A DNA stretch of 64,000 bases. Source: an uncultured virus (IMG/VR IMGVR_UViG_3300037245_004243) (lineage: Duplodnaviria; Heunggongvirae; Uroviricota; Caudoviricetes). Positions 42,712-58,379 of this stretch are shown here, piece after piece. Position 1 is the stretch's first letter; each line of letters begins with the position of its first letter. The position numbers and the translations under genes are program-made. Location of the stretch: IMG/VR virus record IMGVR_UViG_3300037245_004243, positions 65,501-129,500 of that record; one strand, given 5' to 3'. The notes beneath the pieces were generated by a model. That model had not been told where the DNA came from. It made no database searches and saw nothing but the letters and a program-made list of their open reading frames with translations.

Positions 42712-42720
42712 GGAGGAATA

Positions 42721-43026
42721 ATGTTTATCGATGAAATGGATTATAAAACGTGTTGGGATTTATGGGGAAAGATAAACCGTAATCCGGTAAAGACTGCCAG
42801 GGCCATTTTCCCACATCAGCCGCCGAGGTATGTAGCTGTTACCAAATTGATCGGGGCCTATCTGGCCAACAAAGGCACCGTCTTGGGATTGCTTGAGCCA
42901 GATAAGAAAGAACGCCGGGACGTGTATATCAAAATCGCTGCAAAAATTTATTGCGATATACCACATTGGGGCCGCAGCTTTTCAATTTTTCGTGCTGATC
43001 TTGCCGTAAAAATCGAAGATAAATGA
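42721..43026 (+). CDS. Early hypothetical
   Basis: RBS GGAGG; ORF track. Confidence 0.6.
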   Translation: MFIDEMDYKTCWDLWGKINRNPVKTARAIFPHQPPRYVAVTKLIGAYLANKGTVLGLLEPDKKERRDVYIKIAAKIYCDIPHWGRSFSIFRADLAVKIEDK

Positions 43027-43089
43027 AAATAAAGCTCAAGTTAATGTTGACTCCTGCCGATAACAGTTATAGAATCAGACAATAAACCA
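43026..43089 (+). promoter_or_regulatory. Composite promoter: TCAA-N16-GCCGATAA nested with TTGACT-N17-TAGAAT
   Basis: TCAA 43036, TTGACT 43047, GCCGATAA 43056, TAGAAT 43070. Confidence 0.7.
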
Positions 43090-43102
43090 AAAGGGAGAAA
43101 AC

Positions 43103-43312
43103 ATGAAAAAGCTAATCGCGGGACTTATCATAATAGGAATTTTGGTAATCGGTGGGAATTCATTAATTAACGAATTAAAAGACGCGATGGAAACCAGAAA
43201 CGCAATAACCTCGGAAATGTTCGAACTGATCAATTCCATTAATAATATCGAAACCGCTTTTGAAAGCCGCACAAATGCACTGAACGCAGTATTTGATCAC
43301 CTGGAGAAATAA
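43103..43312 (+). CDS. Small membrane-anchored hypothetical
   Basis: N-terminal hydrophobic helix LIAGLIIIGILVIGG. Confidence 0.6.
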   Translation: MKKLIAGLIIIGILVIGGNSLINELKDAMETRNAITSEMFELINSINNIETAFESRTNALNAVFDHLEK

Positions 43313-43314
43313 AC

Positions 43315-44019
43315 ATGATATTCGACAACGGCCCAATAGTAAACTCGAGATTCACATGGCAACCAAAACCGGGGACGGGTAATAAAAGTTGTAAGGGTGT
43401 AACCGATAAAGAAAAACTTCGGCTAACCAACGTTCTCATCGACCGCGCAGGTGTCGACGAATTTTTGCAGGTATTATACGATTCCGGAGAGAGAAAAATT
43501 GATGTTGACCTTTCCGAGCGCAGAACCACACGCCGATGGGGAACAGCATACATCCTGGAACGCCGGGTTAAAATATTCCGACATACTGTATGGATACTTT
43601 TGCATGAACTCGCGCACATCCTCGATACAAAAATATCATTTGCAACCGGATCTATTATAACACCTGCCAAACCGCATGGACCCGATTTCGGTCGCCATCT
43701 CACTTGCTTATACCAAATATGGATGGAAAATTGCGACAAGGGCGTTGAAAATTTACCAACCAAACCAACCGCGCCAATTCTCGGACCCTCTGAGTGGCGA
43801 CGGCAGCATTCAGCCGATAGAGGCCGGGGACGCATAGTCGACAATGGCCTTCAGGTAGGGGATCAAGTATCCTTCCCAACAGCAAAAAAAGGAACCATAT
43901 ACGCCATCGTCAAAAAGGTAAATAAGAAAACGTGCCGGGTAACACCGGTCGACGGCGGTAACGATTGGAGAGTATCACCGAAACTTTTAAATAAACTATA
44001 TAAAGTTTACACAATATAA
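43315..44019 (+). CDS. Zincin/SprT-like metallopeptidase with C-terminal SH3-like domain
   Basis: RWGTA, ILLHELAH, PHGPDF; LQVGDQVSF..VKKVNKKT..WRVSPKLL. Confidence 0.65.
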   Translation: MIFDNGPIVNSRFTWQPKPGTGNKSCKGVTDKEKLRLTNVLIDRAGVDEFLQVLYDSGERKIDVDLSERRTTRRWGTAYILERRVKIFRHTVWILLHELAHILDTKISFATGSIITPAKPHGPDFGRHLTCLYQIWMENCDKGVENLPTKPTAPILGPSEWRRQHSADRGRGRIVDNGLQVGDQVSFPTAKKGTIYAIVKKVNKKTCRVTPVDGGNDWRVSPKLLNKLYKVYTI

Positions 44020-44028
44020 GGTAAAAAA

Positions 44029-44400
44029 ATGTCAAAAATCTGCCAATACCAATGTGGATCTTGTGGACGTAAATTTTGTAGGCTATGGACACAAGAACAA
44101 ATCGATACCGAGGTCTGCCCCGCCGAAGGCGAAGACCTATTCACCTGCCCTTGTGATTTATGTGGCGCCCAGGGAGTTGATTTAGATATGACGCCTTATA
44201 AAGTTTACATGGATGGCCACCTTGTTGGATACCTGATGCTGGAAACAATCAAGGAAATCCACGGGTCCAATATTTCTTTCATCGACCATATAAAGCGAGA
44301 GGTATTTGTGAGATATATAATCCCGCAGGATGTATGGGACGATATACCGCTCACCCCTTTACCGTATTATGGTATGCATCCAAAAAATGAAAATAAATGA
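44029..44400 (+). CDS. Zn-binding hypothetical
   Basis: CQYQCGSCG..CPCDLCG. Confidence 0.55.
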   Translation: MSKICQYQCGSCGRKFCRLWTQEQIDTEVCPAEGEDLFTCPCDLCGAQGVDLDMTPYKVYMDGHLVGYLMLETIKEIHGSNISFIDHIKREVFVRYIIPQDVWDDIPLTPLPYYGMHPKNENK

Positions 44401-44462
44401 AAATAAAGCTCAAGTTCTCTTGACATGTGCCGATAACAGTTATAGTATTAGAGAATAAACCA
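44400..44462 (+). promoter_or_regulatory. Composite promoter: TCAA-N15-GCCGATAA nested with TTGACA-N17-TAGTAT
   Basis: TCAA 44410, TTGACA 44420, GCCGATAA 44429, TAGTAT 44443. Confidence 0.75.
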
Positions 44463-44483
44463 AACGCAAAGGGAGAACTAAAT

Positions 44484-44918
44484 ATGAGAGCACTTACCGC
44501 AGCCATGCCAACCGTAAACGTAGACCACGCCGAAAACCTTATTTATCAAAATTATGCCAAAGGCAACGAAGCCCTGAAAGCCGAGGGACACGCCATTTTG
44601 AAAATAATAGTAAAAGCCGATGGTACAGTACGCGCCAGCAAGCCGAAAGTAAAGGATGCCTTGACCGGAAAAGCCGCCTACATTTGGAGAATGGTAGTAT
44701 TTTTGACTTCCCCGAAACCGGCACATTCCTGCATGCCTTGCACCTGCGATTGGGATCTTCCGGTAACCGACGAAAACGGCAAATGGCGATATTCCCTGGC
44801 CGCAGAAATGGCCAAGACTTTGAAACCCATCGAGGACGCCATTGTAGATAGCATCGACAAAAGCGAATGGCATGGCGTACAAACCTGGGGAAGGATTCTG
44901 GGAAACCCGACGGTATAA
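44484..44918 (+). CDS. Early hypothetical
   Basis: RBS GGGAG, ATG 44484 MRALTAAMP. Confidence 0.65.
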   Translation: MRALTAAMPTVNVDHAENLIYQNYAKGNEALKAEGHAILKIIVKADGTVRASKPKVKDALTGKAAYIWRMVVFLTSPKPAHSCMPCTCDWDLPVTDENGKWRYSLAAEMAKTLKPIEDAIVDSIDKSEWHGVQTWGRILGNPTV

Positions 44919-44945
44919 AAAAATCCACGTTAAGGAGAATTAATT

Positions 44946-45215
44946 ATGTACCGAAGCATTTTAAGTAAAAAGCCTAACCTTCAGGAATTCGAATTTGAAT
45001 GTAATGGATGTGGCCGGATATCATTCAGGCAGATCGATTGTCCCGTGACCGGAACCAAAGCCGGGGCCGGGTTCGAATACGTTTGCACAAAATGCCGGGG
45101 CACCCTAAAGCAAGTGTCTAAAACTTCTGGTGTATTAAATACCGGAAATTCTGGAGATGACAAGTCGGAATGCGACAGTGATTGTCCAAAATGTGAAAGA
45201 GACTGCATATTTTAA
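44946..45215 (+). CDS. Cys-rich zinc-ribbon hypothetical
   Basis: CNGCG..C..CTKC..CDSDCPKCERDC. Confidence 0.6.
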   Translation: MYRSILSKKPNLQEFEFECNGCGRISFRQIDCPVTGTKAGAGFEYVCTKCRGTLKQVSKTSGVLNTGNSGDDKSECDSDCPKCERDCIF

Positions 45216-45373
45216 ACGCAACTGATATGTTGCGCAACGTAAAAGTTGCGCAACACAGGAATGAAAATGAAAGAAGACCCAAGATATGACAAAGGAATTT
45301 CGACATGGACGTTGGTAGGCATATGGGTATTTATTGCCGCCGCCGCCGGATTTATTTTAACTTGGAGGTTCTG

Positions 45374-45697
45374 ATGAATTTTTTCATACCGAAAGACAAA
45401 ACAATACTCCCTTTGATGACGACGCCCAATATGTCTTTCAAAGGATCACCCTGCTGCCCGTTATGCGAGGCCGGACATAAGCCAACCATAATAAAAAGGA
45501 GAATGAAGAAAATGTATAGAATGACATTAATGAGCGGTAAATGGTATTCTGTGGAAATCAACAATATTGATGACGACATAGAAAACATAACCGACTTTAT
45601 TGAATCTGGCGATATTGTTGCTTTAACCGACGATATCGACTGGTTCGCTGAAGAAATTGGTGTTGAGCGAAATGAGATCATCGAGGTCGAAATATAG
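45374..45697 (+). CDS. Early hypothetical (possibly second start at 45512)
   Basis: RBS GGAGG; CCPLC; acidic C-half. Confidence 0.5.
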   Translation: MNFFIPKDKTILPLMTTPNMSFKGSPCCPLCEAGHKPTIIKRRMKKMYRMTLMSGKWYSVEINNIDDDIENITDFIESGDIVALTDDIDWFAEEIGVERNEIIEVEI

Positions 45698-45710
45698 TTT
45701 CAAATAATCG

Positions 45711-45773
45711 AAAATAAAGCTCAAGTTATTTTTCAAAGTGCCGAAATCATTAATAACAGCGAGAGATAAACCA
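45711..45773 (+). promoter_or_regulatory. Early promoter cassette copy, sigma28-like (TCAA-N15-GCCGAAAT)
   Basis: Two mismatches versus 40717-40779. Confidence 0.7.
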
Positions 45774-45799
45774 ACAACCAAAACCGAGAGGTAAATAAT

Positions 45800-46036
45800 A
45801 TGACTAACGCAAAAAACAATACCGAAAACACCGCAGACAGACGCTTTGCCGCCGATTCAGCCTTCACCGATAACTGGATGGCAAAAGCCTTTAAAGTAGA
45901 GCAAGAAGAAATGCGGGCCGAGGCCAATTTGAATAACGCCCTCATCCGCCACGACCGCCACCGGATGGAAGACCATCGCGCGAGCCGGGTAAACTTTTCC
46001 GACGCAGAAGAAGCCGCGATAACTTCACCGAGATAA
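45800..46036 (+). CDS. Early hypothetical
   Basis: RBS GAGGT; directly behind promoter cassette. Confidence 0.6.
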   Translation: MTNAKNNTENTADRRFAADSAFTDNWMAKAFKVEQEEMRAEANLNNALIRHDRHRMEDHRASRVNFSDAEEAAITSPR

Positions 46037-46243
46037 GCAGCAACGCCCTTAGATGAACCCATCGGACTATATTCCCGAGAAAGCATCTAAGGGCAAGTAT
46101 ACAAGAAATTGTATAAAATCAATCAAAAAATTGTACAGAAAGGGGACTGCGATATGGATTACAACGTAAAAGATACCTTGTAGGCACTTCAGCCACTACA
46201 AGAGGGCCGGGAGCTTCGAACAAACCGGCCATAGGAGACTACA

Positions 46244-46444
46244 ATGGACTTTTATATTGGAAACTTAATTCTCGCAACTAACTACAAACCAGTCTGGACT
46301 TGCTGGCACCGTAAAACCGTAAGCGCCGACGTTCAGGCGCATAAACGCCGCGCACGCCGGACCTACAAACATTACCTTAAAACTGGCTGTATTAGCGATT
46401 ACAACCGCAGCCAACGCAAACTAACTAATCGGGATTTTGATTAA
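46244..46444 (+). CDS. Small Arg-rich hypothetical
   Basis: RBS AGGAG; HKRRARRTYKHYL. Confidence 0.55.
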   Translation: MDFYIGNLILATNYKPVWTCWHRKTVSADVQAHKRRARRTYKHYLKTGCISDYNRSQRKLTNRDFD

Positions 46445-46460
46445 AAGGAGAATTAAAAAA

Positions 46461-46730
46461 ATGACACCAGTACAAATTGACGTTTTATTATACTACCACT
46501 GCCACTTTGACCATCACCCGAAAGTAATCGAACGGGCCGAATCATATGTCAGAGCCCTGAATGGATGGAAAGACCAGGGAGTTTTAAAAGAAACTTCGAC
46601 GAAGACAGGCGGGTCGATTTCTGACGCAAGGACGCAAGGATATACGACAACGGAAAAGGGCCGGGCATTGATTGAAATGCTATGCGCCACGCCGATGCCG
46701 GTTATGGTTTACGCTGATCCACGAGGATAA
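46461..46730 (+). CDS. Small hypothetical, winged-helix-like
   Basis: RBS AAGGAG; GVL...YTTTEKGRALIE. Confidence 0.55.
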   Translation: MTPVQIDVLLYYHCHFDHHPKVIERAESYVRALNGWKDQGVLKETSTKTGGSISDARTQGYTTTEKGRALIEMLCATPMPVMVYADPRG

Positions 46731-46732
46731 AA

Positions 46733-47338
46733 ATGAGCGAATTAAAATATAGTAAAACACATAGTCCATACATCGAGCTGGTCGACGCCGAAGGAAAAAC
46801 TTACGGGACGATAATTTTCTCCCGTATCACATCGACCAGCGCCGGGTATAAATATTTTTGCTTCACACATCAATATACCAATTCTGTGGTATCAAAAACA
46901 GGCAAAGGCGACAATGCTCGATCCAGAATTACCGAGGTCGACGTCAATGAAAGTTGCACTTTCAATATGAAAATGAAACGGGCCGGGAAATCGGGTGTGC
47001 CGCAGGGAATGATACCGCGCCGCCTGGTTGATTGGATTGTTGCGCTCTTCAGCGAGTATACGGTTGATGGGATAATGCCATATGACGCCATTCCCGCTAT
47101 TGGATTGATTGTTGCCGAGATGGATATAGATAAAATATTAGTGACCGACTGTGAACGCGTCCGAGCCGCCAAGAAAAAAATCAGAGTAGAAAAGGTTCAG
47201 GCCAAGCTCGCCGCCGAAGATAAAGCCGAAATTGAAGAGCAGATCATCAGGGACGATTACAAAAACATGCCGCGCCGTGACGCGCTCGAGGCTGAGTCGG
47301 TAAAAAAGAAAGTCGTAAAATTGTCGGAGGTATTTTGA
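46733..47338 (+). CDS. Early hypothetical
   Basis: ORF track, coupled to neighbours. Confidence 0.6.
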   Translation: MSELKYSKTHSPYIELVDAEGKTYGTIIFSRITSTSAGYKYFCFTHQYTNSVVSKTGKGDNARSRITEVDVNESCTFNMKMKRAGKSGVPQGMIPRRLVDWIVALFSEYTVDGIMPYDAIPAIGLIVAEMDIDKILVTDCERVRAAKKKIRVEKVQAKLAAEDKAEIEEQIIRDDYKNMPRRDALEAESVKKKVVKLSEVF

Positions 47339-47700
47339 TGAAAGATGATAAATGTGAATGGTGTTTATCCGGCCAGGATTTTTTATTTAAATATGATAAA
47401 TGGTGGATATGTTCAGAATGCCTTGATATGGCCGAAAAATATACGAAATGCGACACAGACATTACCACCAATTTGAACCGACAAGATCTTGGGGCGGTAT
47501 GCGCCGCAATTGAAGCCGATGAAGTCGATTGGGATGGAGGTCCTATGGAACCTCTGCCGGGGTCAGCATATGGGACCTTTTCCTGGGACGGCAAAAAATA
47601 CGAACTTATTAAAACTGATGAAGTCATCACCAATATTAAATTAATCGCAAAAAAACTTCCGCGATTCGTGAATCACGGATTTTGTTACTCCCGATATTAA
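47335..47700 (+). CDS. Hypothetical with CxxC..CxxC
   Basis: CEWC..ICSEC. Confidence 0.55.
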   Translation: MMKDDKCEWCLSGQDFLFKYDKWWICSECLDMAEKYTKCDTDITTNLNRQDLGAVCAAIEADEVDWDGGPMEPLPGSAYGTFSWDGKKYELIKTDEVITNIKLIAKKLPRFVNHGFCYSRY

Positions 47701-47702
47701 TC

Positions 47703-47852
47703 ATGAGCAAACGAAAGAAAAAAATAATTGTGAACAAGGAACTGGCCGAGAGTCAGAAATTACCTGTTCGCATCCCTTCCGCTAAACCTACCGAATTTCA
47801 TAAGGATAAATCCAAATACGACCGCCGCCAAGAAAAATCCATCCCTGAATAA
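47703..47852 (+). CDS. 49-aa basic micro-protein
   Basis: Below cutoff; MSKRKKK...PVRIPSAKPTEFHKDKSKYDRR. Confidence 0.5.
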   Translation: MSKRKKKIIVNKELAESQKLPVRIPSAKPTEFHKDKSKYDRRQEKSIPE

Positions 47853-47862
47853 ATCCCTTCTT

Positions 47863-47892
47863 TTGACAGTAAACCTCTCGAAATGGTATAAT
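47863..47892 (+). promoter_or_regulatory. Sigma70 promoter for gp55 (TTGACA-N18-TGgTATAAT)
   Basis: Consensus hexamers with extended -10. Confidence 0.75.
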
Positions 47893-47928
47893 GGTTGCAT
47901 ACATTCTAATTCGGAGAGGATCAGCTAA

Positions 47929-48339
47929 ATGTCGAAAAAGCAAGGGAAATATTACGTTAAGAACAAGGAGATGTTGGAAGCCATTATGCGAATGAAGGAG
48001 ACCGGTATCATCGGTGAAGATCTGCATCTAATGTTTTATAAAATGGCGCAGAGTATAGGCACAAAGCCGAGATTTTCGGGGTATACCTGGATCGAGGATA
48101 TGATATCGGATGCATATTTAAAATGCTGCATCAAAGCGGATAAATTTAAACCCGAGAAAACAAACAATCCATTCGGGTATTTTACCACGGTTATTATTCA
48201 TCACTTTTGGGATGCTCTGGCCGGAGAAAACAGACAGAAAAATATCAAGGAAAAACTGCGGGATGACCAAATAAGCCAGATATATCACCGCTATGGAATT
48301 CAATTTAAAGTCGGTAATTCTGGAACCCGGCAAGATTAA
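47929..48339 (+). CDS. gp55: Late-transcription sigma factor gp55
   Basis: YYVKNKEML, KPRFSGYTW.EDMISDA..C...KF.PEK.NNPFGYFT..I..F...E.RQ..IK. Confidence 0.92.
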   Translation: MSKKQGKYYVKNKEMLEAIMRMKETGIIGEDLHLMFYKMAQSIGTKPRFSGYTWIEDMISDAYLKCCIKADKFKPEKTNNPFGYFTTVIIHHFWDALAGENRQKNIKEKLRDDQISQIYHRYGIQFKVGNSGTRQD

Positions 48340-48350
48340 GGAGAATCATC

Positions 48351-48749
48351 ATGACAGGCACCGATACGTTAATTAAGGAAATTGAATTAGTGATGTTGGT
48401 TGTGGATATCAGGGAATTAACCGAGAAGACGATTGTTAGCGCAAAATCGTTACCGTCGCCGGGGCCGTATGGTCAACCGGATTTAGAATTTCAGGTAATG
48501 GCCATCACTGAAATGTTGAAAGCGGTCAAAATCGAAGTGGCCAACGCGCCCGTTATGATACCGGACGGTTACGAGCAACCAATTGTGATGCAGACACGCC
48601 GCCTGGGTGAAACCGAAATGGTGACAATTCCCAAAGGATGTGATACAATATACCTTTACAATTGGTTCACCCTGGCCGATCTGATGACCCAGGAAAAATC
48701 GCAAATGATACGCCTCGCATTTGTTGGGGAAGGGAAACAGATAACATGA
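48351..48749 (+). CDS. Hypothetical
   Basis: RBS AAGGAG; ORF track. Confidence 0.55.
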   Translation: MTGTDTLIKEIELVMLVVDIRELTEKTIVSAKSLPSPGPYGQPDLEFQVMAITEMLKAVKIEVANAPVMIPDGYEQPIVMQTRRLGETEMVTIPKGCDTIYLYNWFTLADLMTQEKSQMIRLAFVGEGKQIT

Positions 48750-49201
48750 AAGAAGCAAAACCCAGGATAATATTGATGAGTGGACTACCACAAAGTGGGA
48801 AATCCACCGAGGCCAGAATGATGAAAAGCCCTATTGTTAGCCGGGACGCCATTCGTAAAACCATCGGGGGTGCCATCCGATATTATAAAGAAGAAAAACG
48901 GGTGACCGAAATAGAACACCTTATGGTTGAAAGCCTAATCAATGCCGGGCATTCTGAAGTGATCATCGATGCTTGTCACCTGAAAGTAACATACCGGAAC
49001 GCATGGCAAAAATTCGTCGATCACCGGGATTACGATATGCACGTTTTCAATGTCATGACCAGCCTCGAAACCTGCGTCTCCAGGGCAAAACGGAATTTTC
49101 CTGATAATCCCGATTTTCCTGCCGTGATATTCCGGATGTGGAAAAAGTCAGCAATGACCATCGGAGCAATACCCGAAAAACAATCAGATAATTGGATGTA
49201 A
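48746..49201 (+). CDS. P-loop kinase (AAA_33 / polynucleotide-kinase-like domain)
   Basis: IILMSGLPQSGKST, IVSRDAIR, VIIDAC, SLETC..R. Confidence 0.8.
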   Translation: MKEAKPRIILMSGLPQSGKSTEARMMKSPIVSRDAIRKTIGGAIRYYKEEKRVTEIEHLMVESLINAGHSEVIIDACHLKVTYRNAWQKFVDHRDYDMHVFNVMTSLETCVSRAKRNFPDNPDFPAVIFRMWKKSAMTIGAIPEKQSDNWM

Positions 49202-49251
49202 TTTTTTGCCCCAAATACGACGCACTATTTGGGGCAAAAAGGAGAAAATTT

Positions 49252-50277
49252 ATGGGCAAAACAGTTGTTATTGGTGATTTACACTTTGGTATCAAGATGG
49301 CTGATGAACGCTTTCTCGGATATCAAATAGAGGAATGGAAAAAATTCATAAACGGGTATTGCCTGGTGAACGATGTCAACCAATTAATAATCTTGGGTGA
49401 CTTTTTCGACAATCGGAATTATCTGTCGGTAAAAATGCTCGATACCGTGAGAACGCAAATTTTCAAGTATGATATGGATATCGTTTTGCTTGTTGGTAAC
49501 CACGATACTCTTTATCGGAATACGAACGCCGTCAGCTCACCGCGCCTGATATTTGGAACACATGATAATATCCAGATAATCGATACCGTCAAAGAGATGT
49601 ATATTGATGACGTCAAATGCCTGATGCTGCCCTGGATAAATAAAGAAAATTACAACAAATCCATTGCCGCCGTGAAGAAAACTGAGGCCGAGTATTGTTT
49701 CGCGCATTTGGCATTGAATGAATTTGAGATGACCTCCGGAATCAAATGCACCACCGGGCTTAACGCCTCCCTCTTTAAAAAATTCAAAGGGGTGTTTACC
49801 GGGCATTTTCATCTGGTCCAGGATGTGGGCAATATCCATTATTTGGGCTCATTTTATCAGACGACCTGGACCGACTGCGGGGATCAAAAGCGAATTTATG
49901 TGGTGGAAGATGGGTTTGAATTGTCGCCGGTACCAATAACCAGGCAAATTTTCAAGAAAATCTATTTGACGAAAGAAGAGCCAATAACCCAGGAAATTAT
50001 CGATTCTGTAGCAGATTGTTACGTTAAAGTCTATTTAAGTTACAAAATGACGGCAAAAGAAGATAAACTTTTGTCAAAATTGTTGGATTGTGCTATAAAT
50101 GTGGATGTAATCGATTTGCGCCTATTACTTGAGGAAGATGGCCGGGATGTGACCGAAGAGGATTTTCTGGAAATATTCAACGGTTTTATGGAACTTCAGG
50201 AAGACCTTGATGAGGAACTGAAGACCGCAGTATCAAATTTGATTCAAAAAACTTATAATGAGGCATTGGAGAAATAA
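49252..50277 (+). CDS. gp47: Recombination endonuclease gp47 (Mre11/SbcD-like)
   Basis: IGDLHFG, LGDFFDNR, VGNHD, LPWI, AHL, GHFH, YLGS.YQ.TW.D. Confidence 0.95.
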   Translation: MGKTVVIGDLHFGIKMADERFLGYQIEEWKKFINGYCLVNDVNQLIILGDFFDNRNYLSVKMLDTVRTQIFKYDMDIVLLVGNHDTLYRNTNAVSSPRLIFGTHDNIQIIDTVKEMYIDDVKCLMLPWINKENYNKSIAAVKKTEAEYCFAHLALNEFEMTSGIKCTTGLNASLFKKFKGVFTGHFHLVQDVGNIHYLGSFYQTTWTDCGDQKRIYVVEDGFELSPVPITRQIFKKIYLTKEEPITQEIIDSVADCYVKVYLSYKMTAKEDKLLSKLLDCAINVDVIDLRLLLEEDGRDVTEEDFLEIFNGFMELQEDLDEELKTAVSNLIQKTYNEALEK

Positions 50278-50279
50278 TA

Positions 50280-50462: not shown

Positions 50463-50627
50463 AAAGAAACTATAGTTTATGCGATTTATAAAACATATTA
50501 TAAACGGATATCGATTATACAAAAGGGCCAAAGCCGGGAAGAGCGCTCTTCCCGTTGACGATGCTGGCTCAATAGTATATGATTTAATTTGGAAATTGAT
50601 AACGCCAAAAAGGTGGTATATTAAAAA

Positions 50628-52835
50628 ATGAGATTCAAAAGTATTCGATGGAGAAATTTGTTTTCATATGGCAAAAAGTGGACCGAGATAGACCTGGACA
50701 GCAATTTGGCCATAAACATCATCGGCAAAAACGGTGACGGAAAATCAGTATTAGTTGAGGCCTTTTATTTTGCCTTGACCGGGAAACCCCTGCGGAAGTG
50801 CAAAAAATCCACAATCGTCAACATATTCAATAAAAAGGATTGCCTGGTCGAACTGAAAGTCGAAGCGGGGAGTCATCGATTTTTGATTATTCGCGGGGTA
50901 AAACCGAATGTATTCCTTATTTTTAAAGATGGCGCCAATGAACCACTTGATGAAAGCGCGATGATGATAGACACGCAGACTTATCTTGAGACTGTGTTGG
51001 GGTATACGCCTAAGAATTTAAAACATACGCTCATCATGTCGACCACCGATTATCAGCCTTTCCTGCGCCTCCCTGCCGCCGATAAACGCCTATTTGTAGA
51101 GGATATCTTGTCCATTGAAATATTCTCCATAATGAATAAGCTGGTCAAAGCCAAACTTTCAATTTTGAAAGACGAGATCAGGGATAATGTCACCGATATC
51201 GAAAAGCTGCAATATAAACTGAATATGATTCTGGAATATAACAAGCAGCAGCAGGAAAACGATGACGACGAACTCGCTGAACATCGCCAGAACATCATCG
51301 ATGAAAAATTATCACTTTCAAAGGAAGTCGAAAGTATAGAATTGCGATTGAAAGCCAGCATTAAAACGGAGCAAAAATCCCTGACCGAAACCCTGAGCAA
51401 GGTAGAAGAAAATTCTGCTTATACCGTCAAAGCAGAGAAGGCCGCTTTGAAAACTGATATCGAGCATTTGAAATTAAAAGCCAAAGTGTTGAAAGAAACA
51501 CTGGCCGAATGCAAAGCAAATAGTCTTATATTAGCCGGACGGGTAGACGATCAAAAGACCGCCGCCGAGAAACTTACTGAAGAAAAAAGTGTGCATGCGA
51601 CCGCTCATACCATCCATTCCGGAAAATATGATGGTGATATTGCGAAATACGAGACCGGAAAGAAAAACGGATCGGACGCCCAATTAAAATTAAAAATTAA
51701 ATTGGAGTCAAAGCAGGAAGATCTCAATTATTATTATGAGACCGATGAATGCACCGAGTGCAAGCAACCAATCGATCCAAAATTTAAAACGGATCAATTG
51801 GCTGGATTAGAAGATGAAATCAAAGCCCTGCAATTGAAGTCTGCCAAGATAAAATCGGAACTGAATAAGGTCGAGAAATTCAAGCATCGAATCGAAAAAT
51901 TTAAGGTAGACAAAATTACGCCACTGAATGAAAAGGTCAGAGAACTGGAAGACAGATTGGTGGATCTAAAAGTATCCTGGGGCGATGATGAGACTGAAAT
52001 AAAAGTAACGGAGCAAAAAGAAATTGCGTGTCGAAAGCAAATGGCCACTTTTAAGGAATCCAGCAATAAGCTAAAGGTTGATGCCGCCGCGAGGATTACC
52101 GGATATGAAAACACCGATGTTATAATCGATGACATGAAGGCAAAGTCAAAATACCGCACCGACCGTATTCATACCGAAACGGCAGACAGAATCACAAATT
52201 GTAATGCCGATACAAAGCGCCGGATCACCGGGTATAAAAATAAAATCGAAACCCTGGAAAGTAAAGAACGGGGTAACATAAAGGATGAACTGGCGCCGGG
52301 CCGGGATGTCGAAGAGGCCGAGGCCAAGAAAAAAGCCTTAACATTCAAAAAGCTGGTCTATGATGTCACCATAAGAATCCTTTCGGATAAAGGAATAAAA
52401 ACCTATATCATCAAACGGTATATTCCGAAACTGAATAATTTAGTCAACGTTTACCTGGAGATTTTATCTGCACCATATAAGCTATCATTTAATGAAGAAC
52501 TCGAGGAGAAAATAGCACTCCAAGGGTATGACAATCTTTCATATGATAATTTTTCAATGGGCGAGCGCCAACGATGTGATATCGCCATGCTTTTTTCCTT
52601 TCTCGATATCGGCAAAATGAAAAATTCTGTTGCATCCAATCTACTTCTAATGGATGAGATATTCGACCGGAGTCTGGACGATGACGGGATTGTGGGCATA
52701 ATAAATATTATCGAAAGCATGAAAGCAAAGGGATATACGATTATTAATATCTCGCATAAACATCAATTGGCTGATAAATTTGACGAGACTTATCGGGCAA
52801 GCAAAGACAAATTTTCGAGACTGGATAAAATATGA
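50628..52835 (+). CDS. gp46: Recombination ATPase gp46 (Rad50/SbcC-like)
   Basis: W.N.FSYG, GKNGDGKS, CTECKQ zinc hook, FSMGERQR, LMDEIFD..LD, ISHK. Confidence 0.95.
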   Translation: MRFKSIRWRNLFSYGKKWTEIDLDSNLAINIIGKNGDGKSVLVEAFYFALTGKPLRKCKKSTIVNIFNKKDCLVELKVEAGSHRFLIIRGVKPNVFLIFKDGANEPLDESAMMIDTQTYLETVLGYTPKNLKHTLIMSTTDYQPFLRLPAADKRLFVEDILSIEIFSIMNKLVKAKLSILKDEIRDNVTDIEKLQYKLNMILEYNKQQQENDDDELAEHRQNIIDEKLSLSKEVESIELRLKASIKTEQKSLTETLSKVEENSAYTVKAEKAALKTDIEHLKLKAKVLKETLAECKANSLILAGRVDDQKTAAEKLTEEKSVHATAHTIHSGKYDGDIAKYETGKKNGSDAQLKLKIKLESKQEDLNYYYETDECTECKQPIDPKFKTDQLAGLEDEIKALQLKSAKIKSELNKVEKFKHRIEKFKVDKITPLNEKVRELEDRLVDLKVSWGDDETEIKVTEQKEIACRKQMATFKESSNKLKVDAAARITGYENTDVIIDDMKAKSKYRTDRIHTETADRITNCNADTKRRITGYKNKIETLESKERGNIKDELAPGRDVEEAEAKKKALTFKKLVYDVTIRILSDKGIKTYIIKRYIPKLNNLVNVYLEILSAPYKLSFNEELEEKIALQGYDNLSYDNFSMGERQRCDIAMLFSFLDIGKMKNSVASNLLLMDEIFDRSLDDDGIVGIINIIESMKAKGYTIINISHKHQLADKFDETYRASKDKFSRLDKI

Positions 52836-53059
52836 GACACTGGATGATCAAAATAGATAATGAATTTGTTCGATATATTCTCCCTGGAATTATTCTCCAG
52901 GGAGAAGAATTGGACCTGCAGAAATTGATGCGAGATCCCGCATATGTAAAGAAAATAGGCGTGCCGGATTCATGTATTTTCAGCAGGTATGGTTTGATTC
53001 CTTTGGAGATAGCCGAAAAATATTTTAAACAATTGGCACTTACCGGAGACCCGAAATGA
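52832..53059 (+). CDS. Small hypothetical
   Basis: ATGA overlap with gp46. Confidence 0.5.
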   Translation: MRHWMIKIDNEFVRYILPGIILQGEELDLQKLMRDPAYVKKIGVPDSCIFSRYGLIPLEIAEKYFKQLALTGDPK

Positions 53060-53123
53060 AATGCGTTATAATGGGTAATATAATGGACGTTAACCCACTT
53101 ATGGACCACTATGGGGAACTATA

Positions 53124-53489
53124 ATGGACATTGTGAATACAATAGTTAATAAAATTCGGCATCAAAGCCAATGGATTATTGGACAAGATGATATGTATCA
53201 ACCATTCTATCCCGATCAATACGAAATAATTGACGCTTTGAACAAAGCCGGGGTGTTTATGGATGTTATCATATCCACGGGGGTTTTGCTTGAAGGCAAC
53301 GACTCAATACTGGCCAAATCAAGTCTTTTCAAAGTGGGTGACATATTTCACAAATTAAAAGAAAATAAATCGATATTATTTTATTTTTGGGCGATACAGC
53401 CATGCGGAATGGTCAAACTTCGGTATGCCAAAAGTTCAAAAATTATACGACCATTACAACGATACAGGAAGGAACTAAATAGTGAATGA
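53124..53489 (+). CDS. Hypothetical
   Basis: ORF track. Confidence 0.5.
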   Translation: MDIVNTIVNKIRHQSQWIIGQDDMYQPFYPDQYEIIDALNKAGVFMDVIISTGVLLEGNDSILAKSSLFKVGDIFHKLKENKSILFYFWAIQPCGMVKLRYAKSSKIIRPLQRYRKELNSE

Positions 53490-53880
53490 TAGATGGGATG
53501 AAGAATGGGATATGGCAAATGGTGTGAAACTCGAGCCGTATTGCTTTGACGCATATCAGGAAGATTGCCGTCATACCGATGTTGGAACTTCCGCGCAGGA
53601 TTTAATGAAGCCGGGATGGTTATATTATGTTCTTGGAATCGGGGAAGAGGCCGGGGAAATCCTGGGAAAAATTAAGAAACTTTTCCGCGACCGGGGAGGC
53701 GTCATCGATAACGTTTTCAAGGCATTGCTTATAAAAGAATGCGGGGACGTGCTTTGGTACATGGCCAGGTTGCTTGACCATTTCGATATTCCATTCAGTG
53801 TGGTCGCCGCCACAAACAAGGAAAAACTTATTGACCGAATGGAACGGGGAGTGCTTCACGGGGACGGAGACGATAGATAA
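53482..53880 (+). CDS. mazG: MazG-like NTP pyrophosphohydrolase
   Basis: YQ..T..YYVLGIGEEAGEI..KIKK..RD..KECGDVLWY..N..KL..R..RG.L.GDGDDR. Confidence 0.9.
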   Translation: MNDRWDEEWDMANGVKLEPYCFDAYQEDCRHTDVGTSAQDLMKPGWLYYVLGIGEEAGEILGKIKKLFRDRGGVIDNVFKALLIKECGDVLWYMARLLDHFDIPFSVVAATNKEKLIDRMERGVLHGDGDDR

Positions 53881-53914
53881 ATAAATATAAAACAGAAAAT
53901 TATGGAGATGATCG

Positions 53915-54259
53915 ATGATTAGCTTGCAAGGAAAGAGAGACACTATTTGCCTGAACGAAAAATTATTCCTTATTCCTAAAAATAAATGGGAAACGCTGTG
54001 CAAATATATCAACCGCCGTCGAAACGGGGCCGTGATAACCAGAACGAAACTCATGGAACATTTGTATGTGACAATGGGTCGTCGGCATGGTTCTCATCAA
54101 TCCATTGACACGTATAGGAATTATTTAACAAAAGCCGGGTTTCTGCGTATAATAGGACCAGGAAAATATGAAAAGGTTAAAACGATTCCATACAAAATAT
54201 CGCGCCGGGACGTTCAGCGTCTTGGGTATGAAACTTCATGCTACTTAAAAGGTTGGTAA
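53915..54259 (+). CDS. Hypothetical, winged-helix-like
   Basis: SIDTYRNYLTKAGFL....GKY. Confidence 0.5.
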   Translation: MISLQGKRDTICLNEKLFLIPKNKWETLCKYINRRRNGAVITRTKLMEHLYVTMGRRHGSHQSIDTYRNYLTKAGFLRIIGPGKYEKVKTIPYKISRRDVQRLGYETSCYLKGW

Positions 54260-54260
54260 A

Positions 54261-54620
54261 ATGGAACACATATTTATTATAATTGGTAAAATGGAACACA
54301 TCTCGTTATTTACTATAATAGCATTCGTTATGTGGGCCATCGGTGTTTTTGTCGATTGTATGACAACGACCGCCGATAATTTTCGATATCATGAAGACAA
54401 TTCAATTTTCGGCGGATTCACAACGCATGATAATCGTGATTTGGTTACACGTGATGTCCGGCTGGCATTGATCTGGCCACTTCGATTATTATTCTATGTG
54501 GTTGTGACCGGAATATGGATATTCAATGATATTCTTGCCGGGTGTTTTCTTGTCTTTGCATTTAAATATAAACGAACCCGTTTATATAATTGGATTGACA
54601 CTAAAACAAACCTGCTGTAA
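54261..54620 (+). CDS. Membrane protein
   Basis: Two or three hydrophobic segments, LALIWPL. Confidence 0.55.
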   Translation: MEHIFIIIGKMEHISLFTIIAFVMWAIGVFVDCMTTTADNFRYHEDNSIFGGFTTHDNRDLVTRDVRLALIWPLRLLFYVVVTGIWIFNDILAGCFLVFAFKYKRTRLYNWIDTKTNLL

Positions 54621-54635
54621 ATACTCCTTGGGGAT

Positions 54636-54643
54636 GGTAAATA
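54636..54643 (+). promoter_or_regulatory. Putative late promoter GGTAAATA
   Basis: Upstream of a structural-looking gene; TGTAAATA also at 54616. Confidence 0.55.
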
Positions 54644-54681
54644 GTTTTAAATACCGAATTAATTTAAAAAGGAGAAAAAAT

Positions 54682-55734
54682 ATGTCAAAATTTAATGTTG
54701 CCGAAGACGCCGCTGCTTTAGATACTGTTGGCGAATTAGACGGCACTGAAATAATTGAAATATCTAAGGCTGGAAAAGGTGGTCGCATAGCTATGTCTCA
54801 AGTCCATGCTTTGGAATTAACTCCCGTTAATGGGGTTGCATCTGCTGGAAAATTGACATCATCTGGTGCGATGGTCGCCGGAACGCATGCGGTTTCCGTT
54901 TTAACCAGTGATACGACAAACCAAAGCGAAGGCGATACAGTCACAATCGGAACGACCGTGTATACATTCCGCGCCGATCCGACCTTACCGTATGACATTG
55001 ATATTGGAGTAAGCGCCGAGGCATCACTGGATAATCTCTTCCAGGCAATCAAGGCAGGAACTGGCGAGGGAACTTCTTATGGGACCGGCACATTAGCACA
55101 TCCAGACGTTATGAGCACTGACGCCAATGCAACAACTCTGACAATCCAGGCAAAGATTCCAGGCACGGTGCCTAATTCGATTGCAACAACCGAGGAAGGG
55201 GATCACACATCTTGGGCCGATACCACACTCGGAGGCGGAACTGGTGCTTCGGTTGCTGGCGTCACCACAGCAGGAGCCTTGCTTACGATTGGATCAAGAG
55301 TTTATACAATCGTTGATGAATTATCAGAAACCGCTGCTGATGCCATCGTTGACCAGATTTTATACGGTGCCAATGAAGCATCAATGATTGCTAATTTTAA
55401 ATTGGCCCTCAATGCCGGGGCATCTGCCGGAACGAATTATTCAACGGGAACTGTTGTGAATGCTCTTGTTGTTGGCGGGGCCAGTGACGCCACAACTATG
55501 GTAATCACCGCAAAGGTCAAAGGAACTGCCGGGGATGATATAGCAACTCTTGAAAGTCTGGCCAATACCGTATTTGATGACGTGACCCTCGGAACAGAGG
55601 TTGCCGGTGTTGATGGGACCGTCGGCAAAAAGGGCCAAACGGCATTTGATGCCACTAACATCTATATTTGCAAGGTTGATAGTGGGACAGGTGATACCGG
55701 AAACTGGCGAAAAGTCGCACACGGCGCTATTTAA
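54682..55734 (+). CDS. Virion structural/fibre or decoration protein with internal duplication
   Basis: RBS AAGGAG, ATG 54682; T/A/G-rich; TIG..VYT...L..A.....GT.Y.TGT...T....AK..GT....IAT.E twice; C-terminal GKKGQ.AFD..NIYIC...NW.KVA. Confidence 0.65.
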   Translation: MSKFNVAEDAAALDTVGELDGTEIIEISKAGKGGRIAMSQVHALELTPVNGVASAGKLTSSGAMVAGTHAVSVLTSDTTNQSEGDTVTIGTTVYTFRADPTLPYDIDIGVSAEASLDNLFQAIKAGTGEGTSYGTGTLAHPDVMSTDANATTLTIQAKIPGTVPNSIATTEEGDHTSWADTTLGGGTGASVAGVTTAGALLTIGSRVYTIVDELSETAADAIVDQILYGANEASMIANFKLALNAGASAGTNYSTGTVVNALVVGGASDATTMVITAKVKGTAGDDIATLESLANTVFDDVTLGTEVAGVDGTVGKKGQTAFDATNIYICKVDSGTGDTGNWRKVAHGAI

Positions 55735-55756
55735 GAAATCCATTCCCACAAATAAG

Positions 55757-55791
55757 AGGCGAGCAAACTCCATAATTGCTCGCCTTTTTTT
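55757..55791 (+). terminator. Intrinsic terminator
   Basis: AGGCGAGCAA-actccataa-TTGCTCGCCT followed by T-run. Confidence 0.85.
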
Positions 55792-55820
55792 GTGACAAAG
55801 GCCAGAGTTAATAGTATAAT
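55792..55820 (+). promoter_or_regulatory. Sigma70-type promoter GTGACA-N17-TATAAT for dam
   Basis: Directly after the terminator. Confidence 0.6.
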
Positions 55821-55858
55821 AGTTTAATATGAAATCTTAACCATAAGGAAGGTGCATA

Positions 55859-56647
55859 ATCCAATATTTCGGAGGTAAGCATTTCACTGCTAAAAAGACG
55901 ACCGATCTGCTCAAAATGATGATGTCTAAAAACCAGGAATACATCGAGCCATTTGTCGGCGCCGCCTGGATTGTTTCAAATATGAAAGCCGCCAAGCGAT
56001 CTGCCAGCGACACAAATCCATATTTGATCGAATTATATAAGGCACTGCAAGCAGGATGGAAGCCGCCAGCAGAAGTTGGCGAGGAGTTATATAAGGATTT
56101 GAGACGGTGTACCGGAAAGCAAAAGCAGGATGGTCCGCAGATACCGCTTGATGAAACTCCAGATTTTCTCGGAGACGGTAAACAACTCGCCCTGATAGGA
56201 TTTGCGGGGTGCGCCTGTAGCTTTGCCGGGATTTGGTATGGTTCATATGCCAGAGACCCTCGGCATCTTGGGATGAACTTTGCTGAAAAGGGACAGACGA
56301 CGCTCCTTCGATTGACCGCTTATATTCGAGATGTCGAATTCCGGTGCTGTTCCTACGATGAATGGAATCCTGAAGGGGCCATGATATATTGTGATCCGCC
56401 ATACAATTCGACCAATCAGCCATATTTTTCAAAGGTATTTGATACAGACAAATTTTGGGAGACTATGCGAAAATGGTCTGAAAACAATATCGTTGTTATT
56501 TCGGAATATTCCGCGCCGGATGACTTTCCGGTAATCGCCTCCCTGCCGACCAAGACGAAAATAGATTGTAAGACCGCCGCCGATGCACGCCGGGCAGAAA
56601 AAATATTTTCAAAAACCCCTTATGACCCTTTCGGAGGGATATTTTAA
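55859..56647 (+). CDS. dam: DNA adenine methyltransferase (Dam/D12 class), probable non-canonical start
   Basis: In-frame QYFGGK at 55862 upstream of the first ATG (55916); YIEPFVGAA, SD.N..LI, IYCDPPY, ISEY. Confidence 0.88.
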   Translation: MQYFGGKHFTAKKTTDLLKMMMSKNQEYIEPFVGAAWIVSNMKAAKRSASDTNPYLIELYKALQAGWKPPAEVGEELYKDLRRCTGKQKQDGPQIPLDETPDFLGDGKQLALIGFAGCACSFAGIWYGSYARDPRHLGMNFAEKGQTTLLRLTAYIRDVEFRCCSYDEWNPEGAMIYCDPPYNSTNQPYFSKVFDTDKFWETMRKWSENNIVVISEYSAPDDFPVIASLPTKTKIDCKTAADARRAEKIFSKTPYDPFGGIF

Positions 56648-56659
56648 GGAGACTGAAAT

Positions 56660-56845
56660 ATGATTTGTTTTACAAATGATGACAGAATTGATGGAGCTGG
56701 AGCTGAAGAAAAACTCAAAAAGCTGACCGATATGACCAGGCGCCTTTTCCTGGTCGTCTATAAGGAACGTGGATATCAGACGCCGTTTATCGAACTGGAA
56801 CTGGAATTCATGAATATTACCGGGGAGGATGTAGACGGAATATAA
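56660..56845 (+). CDS. Small hypothetical
   Basis: RBS AAGGAG. Confidence 0.5.
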   Translation: MICFTNDDRIDGAGAEEKLKKLTDMTRRLFLVVYKERGYQTPFIELELEFMNITGEDVDGI

Positions 56846-56915
56846 GTCCGATTAAAGCCCAATTATGGGGTTAACTGGACATATTTGTCATCACATATAA
56901 ATAAATGGGGCACTT

Positions 56916-57455
56916 ATGACAATATTAATTTCAATGGATATGGCAATGCGATCTTCCGGTATTATGGCTTTAACATCGGAAAATAACGTAATAGGATTTG
57001 AGGTAATAAAAACCAGGCTTGAAGATTTTCCTGATCACGAAGACATGATAATTCATGTTGTCAGGGAAACGATCAGGTTTATCACCGAATTTGAAGGCGA
57101 TTTTTTCGTGATTGAAGGGTTAGCGCATGGGGCCAAAAATGCTTCATTTGATGTGATTGCCGGGCTATTCTGGTCAATCAGATGCGCTATCTGGAAACAT
57201 TTTATTGAACTGCCAATCGGTATTGTGCCGGTAACTTCCTGGCGGAGCAAGGTTTTAAATAAGGAAGACCGCGCTTACGCCAAGGAAAATTACTCCCCGA
57301 AAGCGGACGTCATGAAAATTGCGACGGTTAAGAAATTACCACTCGAACTCTATGAGTGGTTTACCGCATATGTTGAATGTTCTGGATTTAATAAAAAGTC
57401 CATCTATGATTTAGCGGACGCATACTTTTTGGGTGTATACCGGAATTCATTATGA
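56916..57455 (+). CDS. RuvC-like (RNase H fold) Holliday junction resolvase
   Basis: ISMDMAMRSSG, FVIEGLA, VPVTSWRS, DLADAY. Confidence 0.8.
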   Translation: MTILISMDMAMRSSGIMALTSENNVIGFEVIKTRLEDFPDHEDMIIHVVRETIRFITEFEGDFFVIEGLAHGAKNASFDVIAGLFWSIRCAIWKHFIELPIGIVPVTSWRSKVLNKEDRAYAKENYSPKADVMKIATVKKLPLELYEWFTAYVECSGFNKKSIYDLADAYFLGVYRNSL

Positions 57456-57620
57456 GATATTTCGGGCCAACCAACCTGGATTCTGGTATGTACTATGCAC
57501 CATATCCGCCTTCATGGACAAGATATATTCCATCACTTAAACAAATTATATGTGATCAACTATTCTTTTGGTCAAATTATCTGCTTTTGAAATTAATGCT
57601 TCGTATTTTGCTTTTTATTT

Positions 57621-57680
57621 AAAATAAAGCTAAAGTTTCCTTGACATAGGCCGATATAGTGTTTAGTATTGGACAATAAC
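57621..57680 (+). promoter_or_regulatory. Composite promoter: TAAAGTTT-N11-GCCGATAT nested with TTGACA-N17-TAGTAT
   Basis: TAAA 57631, TTGACA 57641, GCCGATAT 57650, TAGTAT 57664. Confidence 0.78.
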
Positions 57681-57695
57681 AAAGGAGAAATAAAT

Positions 57696-57884
57696 ATGAA
57701 AGCTTACGGACTCCCAAGAAACGACGATGTAGAAAACCCCGATGTTGCGGACATCAAATTTTATGGCCTGAATACCTCGGCTGGAGGCCGCGACTATTTC
57801 AAAAACAAAAGCGCAAAGGCTGCGACCAGACGCGGATGGAAACGTCGCGCACGCCGGGCCAACAAAAATCTTTGTAAAAGGTAA
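57696..57884 (+). CDS. Small Arg-rich hypothetical
   Basis: RBS AAGGAG; MKAYGLPRN..PDVADIK.YGL..KAATRRGWKRRARR. Confidence 0.65.
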   Translation: MKAYGLPRNDDVENPDVADIKFYGLNTSAGGRDYFKNKSAKAATRRGWKRRARRANKNLCKR

Positions 57885-57943
57885 AATAAAGCTAAAGTTT
57901 CCTTGACATAGGCCGATAACAGTTATAGTATTGGACAATAAAC
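57883..57943 (+). promoter_or_regulatory. Composite promoter: TAAAGTTT-N11-GCCGATAA nested with TTGACA-N17-TAGTAT
   Basis: TAAAGTTT 57893, TTGACA 57903, GCCGATAA 57912, TAGTAT 57926; matches the full FliA consensus. Confidence 0.8.
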
Positions 57944-57957
57944 AAGGAGAAATAAAT

Positions 57958-58377: not shown

Positions 58378-58379
58378 AT

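Follow-up and report, generated by a model that had tools for sequence, protein, structure and literature searches.

Overlaid sigma70 and sigma28-type consensus boxes ahead of small genes in an uncultured T4-like phage from marine sediment

Background

The early promoters of phages are usually described as strong housekeeping promoters. Here we analyze a promoter cassette of approximately 80 nt that is repeated ahead of small genes in an uncultured tailed virus and in which a sigma70 consensus is interleaved with a consensus of the sigma28 (FliA) type. The cassette was identified in a 64,000-nt stretch of DNA (hereafter, the window) that corresponds to positions 65501 to 129500, that is, the second half, of the 129,500-bp IMG/VR record IMGVR_UViG_3300037245_004243; coordinates refer to the window unless given as genome positions, which refer to the complete record.

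Transcription of the same genes by two forms of the host RNA polymerase has precedents in both phages and flagellated bacteria. In phage T4, the early promoters are recognized by sigma70 alone, and the middle promoters by sigma70 together with AsiA and with MotA bound at the Mot box near -30. In Salmonella, flagellar operons such as those of fliA, flgM, flgK and fliD have two adjacent promoters, one of class 2 (sigma70), which requires FlhDC, and one of class 3 (sigma28). Flagellar operons with both promoter types were reportedly described by Wozniak and Hughes in 2008. Transcription from sigma28 promoters starts about 7-8 nt past the -10 box and requires the sigma28 holoenzyme.

The published sigma28 consensus of E. 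coli is TAAAGTTT-n11-GCCGATAA (PMC2859248). Among T4-like phages, the closest described element is the promoter-early stem-loop (PeSL), which, according to the excerpted description, includes sigma70-like promoters or, in phage nt-1, Mot-box middle promoters, with no mention of sigma28-type boxes in that excerpt (PMC4122927). Among the papers listed, at the level of titles and abstract openings, none was found that describes promoters of the sigma28 type, or dual ones for sigma70 and sigma28, in the early regions of phages, which fits the statement in the initial annotation of the window that no such overlap was known in T4-like phages.

Results

Four cassettes with two interleaved promoter consensuses

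The window contains four copies of the cassette, all on the + strand, at 43026-43105, 44400-44486, 57621-57698 and 57883-57960 (cassettes 1 to 4, respectively), precisely where the initial annotation had placed them. In the 5' to 3' direction, the cassette consists of an A-rich block, AAAATAAAGCT, the box T[AC]AAGTT[TCA] (in its extended form, AAAGCTAAAGTTT), 2-3 variable nt, TTGAC[AT], 3 variable nt, GCCGATA[AT], 6 nt, TAG[AT]AT, a leader of 20-35 nt, a Shine-Dalgarno (SD) sequence and the ATG start codon. The boxes of the two promoters thus alternate within the same 45 bp: the sigma28-type -35 box ends 2 nt 5' of TTGACA (3 nt in a few copies), and the sigma28-type -10 box lies within the sigma70 spacer, 3 nt past TTGACA and 6 nt ahead of the sigma70 -10 box.

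All four copies contain TTGAC[AT] and TAG[AT]AT separated by 17 nt, with 10 of 12 positions matching the sigma70 consensus. The respective boxes are TTGACT (43047-43052) and TAGAAT (43070-43075) in cassette 1, TTGACA (44420-44425) and TAGTAT (44443-44448) in cassette 2, TTGACA (57641-57646) and TAGTAT (57664-57669) in cassette 3, and TTGACA (57903-57908) and TAGTAT (57926-57931) in cassette 4. The sigma28-type boxes are TCAAGTTA (43036-43043) and GCCGATAA (43056-43063) in cassette 1, with a 12-nt spacer and 14 matches out of 16; TCAAGTTC (44410-44417) and GCCGATAA (44429-44436) in cassette 2, with an 11-nt spacer and again 14 of 16; TAAAGTTT (57631-57638) and GCCGATAT (57650-57657) in cassette 3, with an 11-nt spacer and 15 of 16; and TAAAGTTT (57893-57900) and GCCGATAA (57912-57919) in cassette 4, where the 11-nt spacer and all 16 positions are those of the published E. 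coli consensus. The -35 box alone is identical to TAAAGTTT at 57631 and 57893 (8/8) and matches it at 6 of 8 positions at 43036 and 44410. For cassette 4, the predicted transcription starts are near 57926-57927 for sigma28 and near 57937-57938 for sigma70.

Each cassette leads directly into a gene. The SD sequence is GGGAG in cassettes 1 and 2, ahead of the ATG codons at 43103 and 44484, and AGGAG in cassettes 3 and 4, ahead of those at 57696 and 57958. Cassette 1, which has the A-rich block at its 5' side, has at its edge the stop codon of the upstream open reading frame (ORF; 42721-43026). The existence of four dual-consensus copies is therefore an observation that we confirm, and the particulars of the initial annotation hold as well: T[AC]AA is followed by GCCGATA after 15 nt in three copies and after 16 nt in cassette 1, the copy at 57893 is an exact TAAAGTTT-N11-GCCGATAA, its equation with the sigma28/FliA consensus agrees with the published E. 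coli consensus (PMC2859248), a ribosome-binding site and a gene follow every copy, and at the sequence level the two consensuses are overlaid with the correct spacing.

Abundance of the cassette compared to chance expectation

In the whole record, there are 11 copies of the cassette, all on the + strand and each followed by an SD sequence and ATG, with GCCGATA at genome positions 3497, 5094, 12888, 25278, 27137, 57681, 58296, 108556, 109929, 123150 and 123412. Within the window, GCCGATAW-N6-TAGWAT with up to 2 mismatches occurs 9 times against 1.96 expected, a number reached in none of 100 shuffles, and the only exact matches are the four cassettes. Likewise, TAAAGTTT-N11-GCCGATAA with up to 3 mismatches occurs 6 times in the window against 1.16 expected (0 of 100 shuffles reach 6). 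A scan of the entire record for FliA sites, with a required CGATA core and a spacer of 10-12 nt, yielded 10 sites with at least 14 of 16 matches on the + strand and none on the - strand; in 100 dinucleotide shuffles of the record, such sites averaged 0.26 and never exceeded 3, both strands together. The spacer is 11 nt in nine of these ten sites and 12 nt in the remaining one.

Two further features of the cassettes were noticed. The cassettes at genome positions 5085, 27128 and 57672 share a nearly identical 33-nt leader, AGAGAATAAACCAACGGCAACAAGGAGACTTGAA (32/33 positions), that extends up to the start codon; either it was copied recently, or it is a 5' untranslated region under conservation. 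In many copies, a palindrome, ATAAC-A-GTTAT, lies between GCCGATA and the -10 box and was considered as a repressor operator; it is absent at 57650, at genome position 3497 and in most relatives of the phage, and because it is not kept in relatives, such an operator is unlikely. Separately, GCCGATAT recurs about every 63 nt on the - strand at 9240-9669, in the context CAG GCC GAT AT; this looks like a tandem peptide repeat in a gene of the structural region rather than a promoter.

Conservation of the dual layout in relatives of the phage

A total of 22 loci share 5-34 ORFs with the phage at 50-70% identity (tblastn), and a helicase search added 3 relatives, all of them fragments of 27-36 kb, with no fuller relative among them. 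In the family that consists of the phage and its relatives at 50-70% protein identity, 34 sites match the sigma28 consensus at 14 or more of 16 positions, and 32 of these are dual. In the dual sites, the upstream box is 2 nt ahead of TTGACA (3 nt in three of them), GCCGATAW begins 3 nt past it, and the sigma70 spacer is 17 nt; the -10 hexamer is TAGTAT, TAGAAT, TAAGAT or TATAAT. The other two sites are sigma28-only. At genome position 58277, the sigma28-type boxes match at 15 of 16 positions, TTGACA is replaced by TTTGGA, and the -10 hexamer is TAGTAA; at position 8792 of the relative L016, the match is again 15 of 16, there is neither TTGACA nor a -10 hexamer, and an SD sequence and ATG are located about 20 nt downstream.

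In an alignment of 34 distinct cassettes from the phage and its relatives, the T, A, A and T positions within the -10 box of sigma70 are highly informative, as is the upstream AAAG..AAAGTTT block, with variation concentrated in the 2-3 nt ahead of TTGACA, the 3 nt past it and most of the 6 nt past GCCGATAW. The conservation of TTGAC and CCGATA in this alignment is forced because both served as alignment anchors. An unforced estimate comes from a scan of IMG/VR for the upstream block followed by TTGAC-N18-TAGWAT, with no requirement for GCCGATA: all 14 distinct sites recovered have CGATA at the same place, namely GCCGATA in 9, ACCGATA in 3, CCCGATA in 1 and GACGATA in 1 (hand count). At positions 2452 and 11637 of the relative L140, the A-rich block abuts TTGACA, as though a deletion had removed the 10 nt that include the sigma28 -35 box.

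Sigma28-type boxes and the dual layout in other phages and in bacteria

The two sigma28-type boxes also occur independently of sigma70 boxes. The pattern AAAGCT[AC]AAGTT-N12-GCCGATA, which does not require a sigma70 promoter, was found in 33 IMG/VR loci at 35 distinct sites (hand count); 20 of these have no TTGAC in the spacer, 12 are dual, and 3 have TTGAC off-register with no usable -10 box. Most of the sites without TTGAC are located 20-40 nt ahead of an SD sequence and ATG, in AT-rich contigs unrelated to the phage. Furthermore, AAAGTT-N11-13-CCGATA is present at 4, 4 and 2 sites in three complete phage records (0 in the reversed control), and across five larger records 33 of the 34 such sites have the canonical spacing. 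The three complete records contain no FliA-like match at E 0.01 or better; thus, canonical sigma28-type promoters occur in phages without a recognizable sigma28 gene. Together with the co-variation of box positions described below, these sites support the view that the sigma28-type boxes behave as a unit of their own.

The dual layout itself is widespread in IMG/VR. With TAGWAT as the -10 box, GCCGATAW is found 3 nt past TTGACA (TTGAC-N4-GCCGATAW-N6-TAGWAT) in 51 loci, 2 nt past it in 73 and 4 nt past it in none, compared to 9 loci for a scrambled 7-mer core at the 3-nt position; with TATAAT as the -10 box, the 3-nt arrangement occurs in at least 119 loci. Most of these loci belong to phages that are unrelated to the studied phage at the protein level, from large uncultured aquatic groups, and display the same order of elements: an upstream TAAAG-type box, TTGACA, GCCGATAW in the spacer and a -10 box. 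Because the layout is present in several hundred viral contigs from at least three unrelated phage groups, the result would reach well past a single genome. In these larger groups, the upstream box is 4 nt ahead of TTGACA in 78 of the 101 sites with a recognizable box. When GCCGATAW is 3 nt past TTGACA, the box is 4 nt ahead in 67 sites and 5 nt ahead in none; when GCCGATAW is 2 nt past, the respective numbers are 11 and 14 (Fisher's exact test, 3.5e-10, a p-value that is merely indicative given that the sites are related). The upstream box thus shifts along with GCCGATAW, which argues for a two-box unit with its own preferred spacing. As a separate observation, some of the dual promoters in five contigs of other phages (L002, L015, L019, L029 and L030) are followed not by an SD sequence and ATG but by a conserved GC-rich stretch, acacggggcg..gccgg.., a candidate for a small RNA or structured leader.

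A scan of GTDB for the dual layout returned 53 loci, against a chance expectation of about 17 matches in 596 Gb (hand estimate); 2 of the 53 (L062 and L103) are relatives of the phage. Downstream of the rest, the ORFs, judged by their opening residues without a family search, resemble various housekeeping genes and not flagellar ones, and the loci were not counted as support. In planctomycete genomes, TAAAG-N10-18-GCCGATA occurs in numbers similar to those of the reversed control (n=101), and TAAAGTT-N9-17-GCCGATAA gives 11 matches against 10 in the control (n=201).

Promoters without the sigma28-type boxes in the same genome

About 11 further strong sigma70-type promoters, TTGAC[ATC]-16 to 18-TA[ATG][AT]AT, precede + strand genes of the phage and have no GCCGATA in the spacer, so GCCGATA is not a general need of the host sigma70 enzyme; it marks a subclass of promoters. 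On the + strand of the window, these promoters include TTGACA-18-TATAAT with TG (12/12) at 47863-47892, ahead of a gene for a gp55-like late sigma factor, TTGACA-17-TATTAT at 61137-61165, ahead of the helicase gene region, and TTGACT-16-TATAAT at 40188-40216. The last of these is cassette-like, with the upstream box decayed to TAAAATTT, and is one of three cassette-like sites that lack the sigma28-type -10 box, the others being at genome positions 24170 and 30126; at 30126, the upstream box has decayed to TAAATTTT. We treat these three sites as anecdotes, with no statistics attached.

In the phage genome, TAG[AT]AT is the -10 box of the dual sites, and TATAAT or TATTAT is that of 9 of the 11 sigma70-only sites. 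A coupling of GCCGATA to G at the third base of the -10 box was considered as a general rule and rejected, given that the dual layout with TATAAT (at least 119 IMG/VR loci) is no less common than that with TAGWAT (51). A second sigma70-like class, GTGACA or GTGACG followed after 17-18 nt by TATAAT, was also noticed ahead of genes, at 55792-55820 and 58963-58992 and at genome positions 7401, 9697 and 21910; in this class, AAA often directly follows the -35 box.

Candidate sigma factors and the host

A six-frame search of the record, which is 74% complete according to CheckV, was carried to E values of 10 and detected neither a FliA/WhiG-family protein nor AsiA, nor region 4 or 4_2 of sigma70. 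A single sigma-like gene was found in it, that of the gp55-like late sigma factor (47929-48339, + strand), which matches phrog_234, 'late sigma transcription factor', with E 3.4e-23 and scores 21-22 bits, under the cut-off, against Sigma70_r2. Five fragments of relatives, each 13-20% complete, contain no FliA/WhiG-family match either. As a side observation, the T4 late box, TATAAATA, is not enriched in the record (15 occurrences on both strands against 11.1 in shuffles). The record encodes a gp55-like late sigma factor all the same, and its late promoter may be unlike that of T4.

Two of the relatives, L062 and L103, which share 5-6 ORFs with the phage at 55-60% identity and contain the same dual cassette, belong to a GTDB bin labelled Bacteroidetes. 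The link between this bin and the phage is weak, given the incompleteness of the bin and the frequency with which binning misplaces phage contigs. Moreover, the strong SD sequences and TTGACA promoters of the cassettes look, in our estimation, unlike those of Bacteroidota, and the two contigs are probably binning passengers.

The phage and the genes behind the cassettes

The record is linear, with 41.9% G+C, and the stretch was found in two sequencing runs of marine sediment DNA, which contain shares of 0.96 and 0.06 of it. Its gene content, which includes an SMC/Rad50-like protein, an Mre11-like phosphoesterase, a RecA-like protein, a DnaB-like helicase, a Dam-type methylase and a ligase, is a T4-type set and, judging from the sequence, identifies the record as a distant T4-like phage from marine sediment. 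The helicase shows at most 37-39% identity to helicases of cyanomyoviruses (cyanophages). There was no DNA-level match to the window in a collection of cultured phages; in a search for cultured relatives and hosts, the cassette alone gave no meaningful match, and contigs of the other phage groups matched only in tRNA or not at all.

Cassette 1 is followed by genes at 43103-43312 (69 aa), 43315-44019 (234 aa) and 44029-44400 (123 aa), none of which has a Pfam family, with a single weak match to a PHROG of unknown function among them; cassette 2 by genes at 44484-44918 (144 aa) and 44946-45215 (89 aa), with no Pfam or PHROG family; and cassette 3 by a gene at 57696-57884 (62 aa), also with no family. 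Cassette 4 precedes genes at 57958-58377 (139 aa), 58380-58601 and 58608-58991, the first of which encodes a protein with a C-terminal DUF6011 domain (E 3e-12) and a match to phrog_20259. All these genes are on the + strand. Thus, at the thresholds used, 8 of the 9 scanned genes in the cassette operons have no PHROG or Pfam family, and the ninth contains a domain of unknown function. By analogy with T4, these small genes would be early-expressed.

Discussion

We favor the interpretation that a genuine, separately selected sigma28-type promoter is laid over the sigma70 promoter, and that two polymerase forms can probably start the same genes from these cassettes. Under this scheme, a promoter composed of the A-rich block, TTGACA, the 17-nt spacer and TAG[AT]AT would be read by the host RNA polymerase with sigma70, and a promoter composed of T[AC]AAGTTT, an 11-nt spacer and GCCGATA[AT] would most likely be read by the host polymerase with FliA. 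The two holoenzymes would bind the same stretch in turn, and the predicted starts, about 11-12 nt apart, would produce the same message with the same ribosome-binding site. Both promoters would be expected to fire, with timing of an early type, so that the small genes would be transcribed from whichever holoenzyme pool the cell has, and expression would peak in motile cells, in which sigma28 would be free. That the reader of the second promoter is host FliA, acting alongside host sigma70, is a proposition to which we assign an even chance. The broader idea that unrelated lineages of uncultured phages recruit the host motility sigma factor together with the housekeeping one, tying the speed of the early program to host swimming, is more tentative and, in our judgment, falls somewhat short of even.

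Several observations weigh against this interpretation. The runs found to contain the stretch include no RNA run, so the two transcription starts are predictions. Throughout the family, both promoters share one register, the only departure being an extra base ahead of TTGACA at 3 distinct sites, so that independent spacing cannot be judged from natural variation within it. Neither are the site counts independent events, because the cassettes of the family share ancestry and perhaps have been homogenized by recombination. At position 11637 of L140, TTGACA, CCCGATAC in the spacer and TAGTAT are all retained and the upstream box is gone; conversely, at genome position 24170, the upstream box is retained and GCCGAAGT takes the place of the sigma28-type -10 box. 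Both sites are awkward exceptions. The upstream box occupies what we take to be the position of the proximal subsite of a UP element with respect to the sigma70 promoter. Given that 12-13 nt separate the boxes in the larger phage groups, classical FliA may not be the reader everywhere. The only bin that holds relatives of the phage (that of L062 and L103) contains no FliA above the cut-off, no flagellin and no FlhA. Finally, because the record is only 74% complete, a sigma28-like gene of the phage itself could reside in the missing part.

Three alternative explanations were weighed. The cassettes might be read by the sigma70 polymerase alone, with the TAAAGTTT block as part of a UP element and GCCGATAW as a regulator site or a spacer element that tunes promoter strength. 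The near-consensus sigma70 boxes in 32 of the 34 family sites speak for such a scheme, as do the A-rich composition of the upstream block at the location of a UP element and its place 4 nt ahead of TTGACA in most sites of the larger groups (78/101); so do the fixed distance of GCCGATAW, 2 or 3 nt past TTGACA in more than 240 IMG/VR loci and never 4 nt past in the one pattern tested, and the L140 site at 11637, with CCGATAC in the spacer and no upstream box. A spacer element, however, has no reason to match the sigma28 consensus at up to 16 of 16 positions at the canonical spacing. In the larger groups, GCCGATA often shifts together with the upstream box, and the two occur as a pair where sigma70 boxes are lacking, at two sites in the family and in unrelated phages (20 of 35 sites; canonical spacing in 33 of 34); the approximately 11 strong sigma70 promoters of the genome do without GCCGATA, and the palindrome that could have been an operator is not kept in relatives. 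We consider this explanation unlikely, albeit the most serious of the three.

A sigma28-like factor might instead be brought by the phage, encoded in the missing 26% of the genome, too diverged for detection or carried in the virion, in which case sigma70 would at first use the cassettes as early promoters, and they would later come under phage control as 'middle' promoters, in place of the MotA/AsiA-dependent middle promoters of T4. The incompleteness of the record leaves room for such a gene, the lack of a detectable AsiA leaves the middle mode without an explanation, and the 12-13-nt spacing in the larger groups would fit a non-classical reader; nevertheless, no FliA/WhiG or region 4 match appears in 129.5 kb at E values up to 10, in the five fragments of relatives or, for FliA-like proteins, in three complete unrelated phages with the same boxes, and as the boxes and their spacing equal the cellular consensus exactly, a host factor is the simplest explanation. 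A phage-borne reader accordingly seems improbable to us. Still less credit is due to the idea that the sigma28-like boxes are functionless at present and are carried along within an 80-nt cassette that is copied and homogenized by recombination, a process that has been proposed for PeSL cassettes. Conservation does reach into the leader, with AGAGAATAAACCAACGGCAACAAGGAGACTTGAA 32/33 identical behind three copies, and for PeSL cassettes, maintained similarity and a part in the shuffling of genes have been reported (PMC4122927, PMC2839356). Yet, the bases between the boxes vary among the copies and in relatives at 50-70% protein identity while the boxes stay, the same two boxes appear in unrelated phage groups with different flanks, and a scrambled core occurs in far fewer loci (9, compared to 51), so we view passive carriage as very improbable.

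If the dual promoters are real and used as proposed, the phage would make use of the sigma factor characteristic of motile cells for its early transcription, and the success of infection would be linked to host behavior, such as dispersal or chemotaxis in sediment. The cassette would then represent a compact natural design for a two-sigma promoter and, potentially, a general phage strategy.

Comparison with known systems

The cassettes match the class 3 flagellar promoters, recognized by FliA in E. coli and Salmonella and by SigD or WhiG elsewhere, in the boxes, the 11-nt spacing and the orientation relative to the gene. The class 3 promoters serve flagellar and chemotaxis genes, whereas the phage cassettes serve small genes of unknown function and have a sigma70 promoter threaded through them. 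The flagellar dual operons likewise make one gene available to both holoenzymes; the phage cassettes differ in overlaying both promoters on 45 bp. The early and middle promoters of T4 also bring one phage gene under two forms of the host polymerase. The window cassettes contain no TGCTT Mot box, and no AsiA was found, MotA not having been searched for; unlike the Mot box of T4, the second signal in the phage cassettes is a full two-box promoter of the sigma28 type.

As an arrangement, the cassettes resemble the PeSL: both are repeated composites of an AT-rich block, near-perfect sigma70 boxes with a 17-nt spacer, an SD sequence and a start codon (PMC4122927), and both adjoin small genes of unknown function (PMC2839356, PMC4122927). 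Unlike in the PeSL, no terminator-like stem-loop was found directly 5' of the four window cassettes in a simple-rule scan, which weak hairpins may escape; the only + strand terminator-like hairpins within 41000-60000 are at 47663, 56626 and 59190. Compared to the large uncultured aquatic phage groups, which share the layout with the boxes 12-13 nt apart, what is particular to the phage studied here is the combination of the canonical 11-nt spacing, the exact sigma28 consensus and the T4-like family from marine sediment in which they occur.

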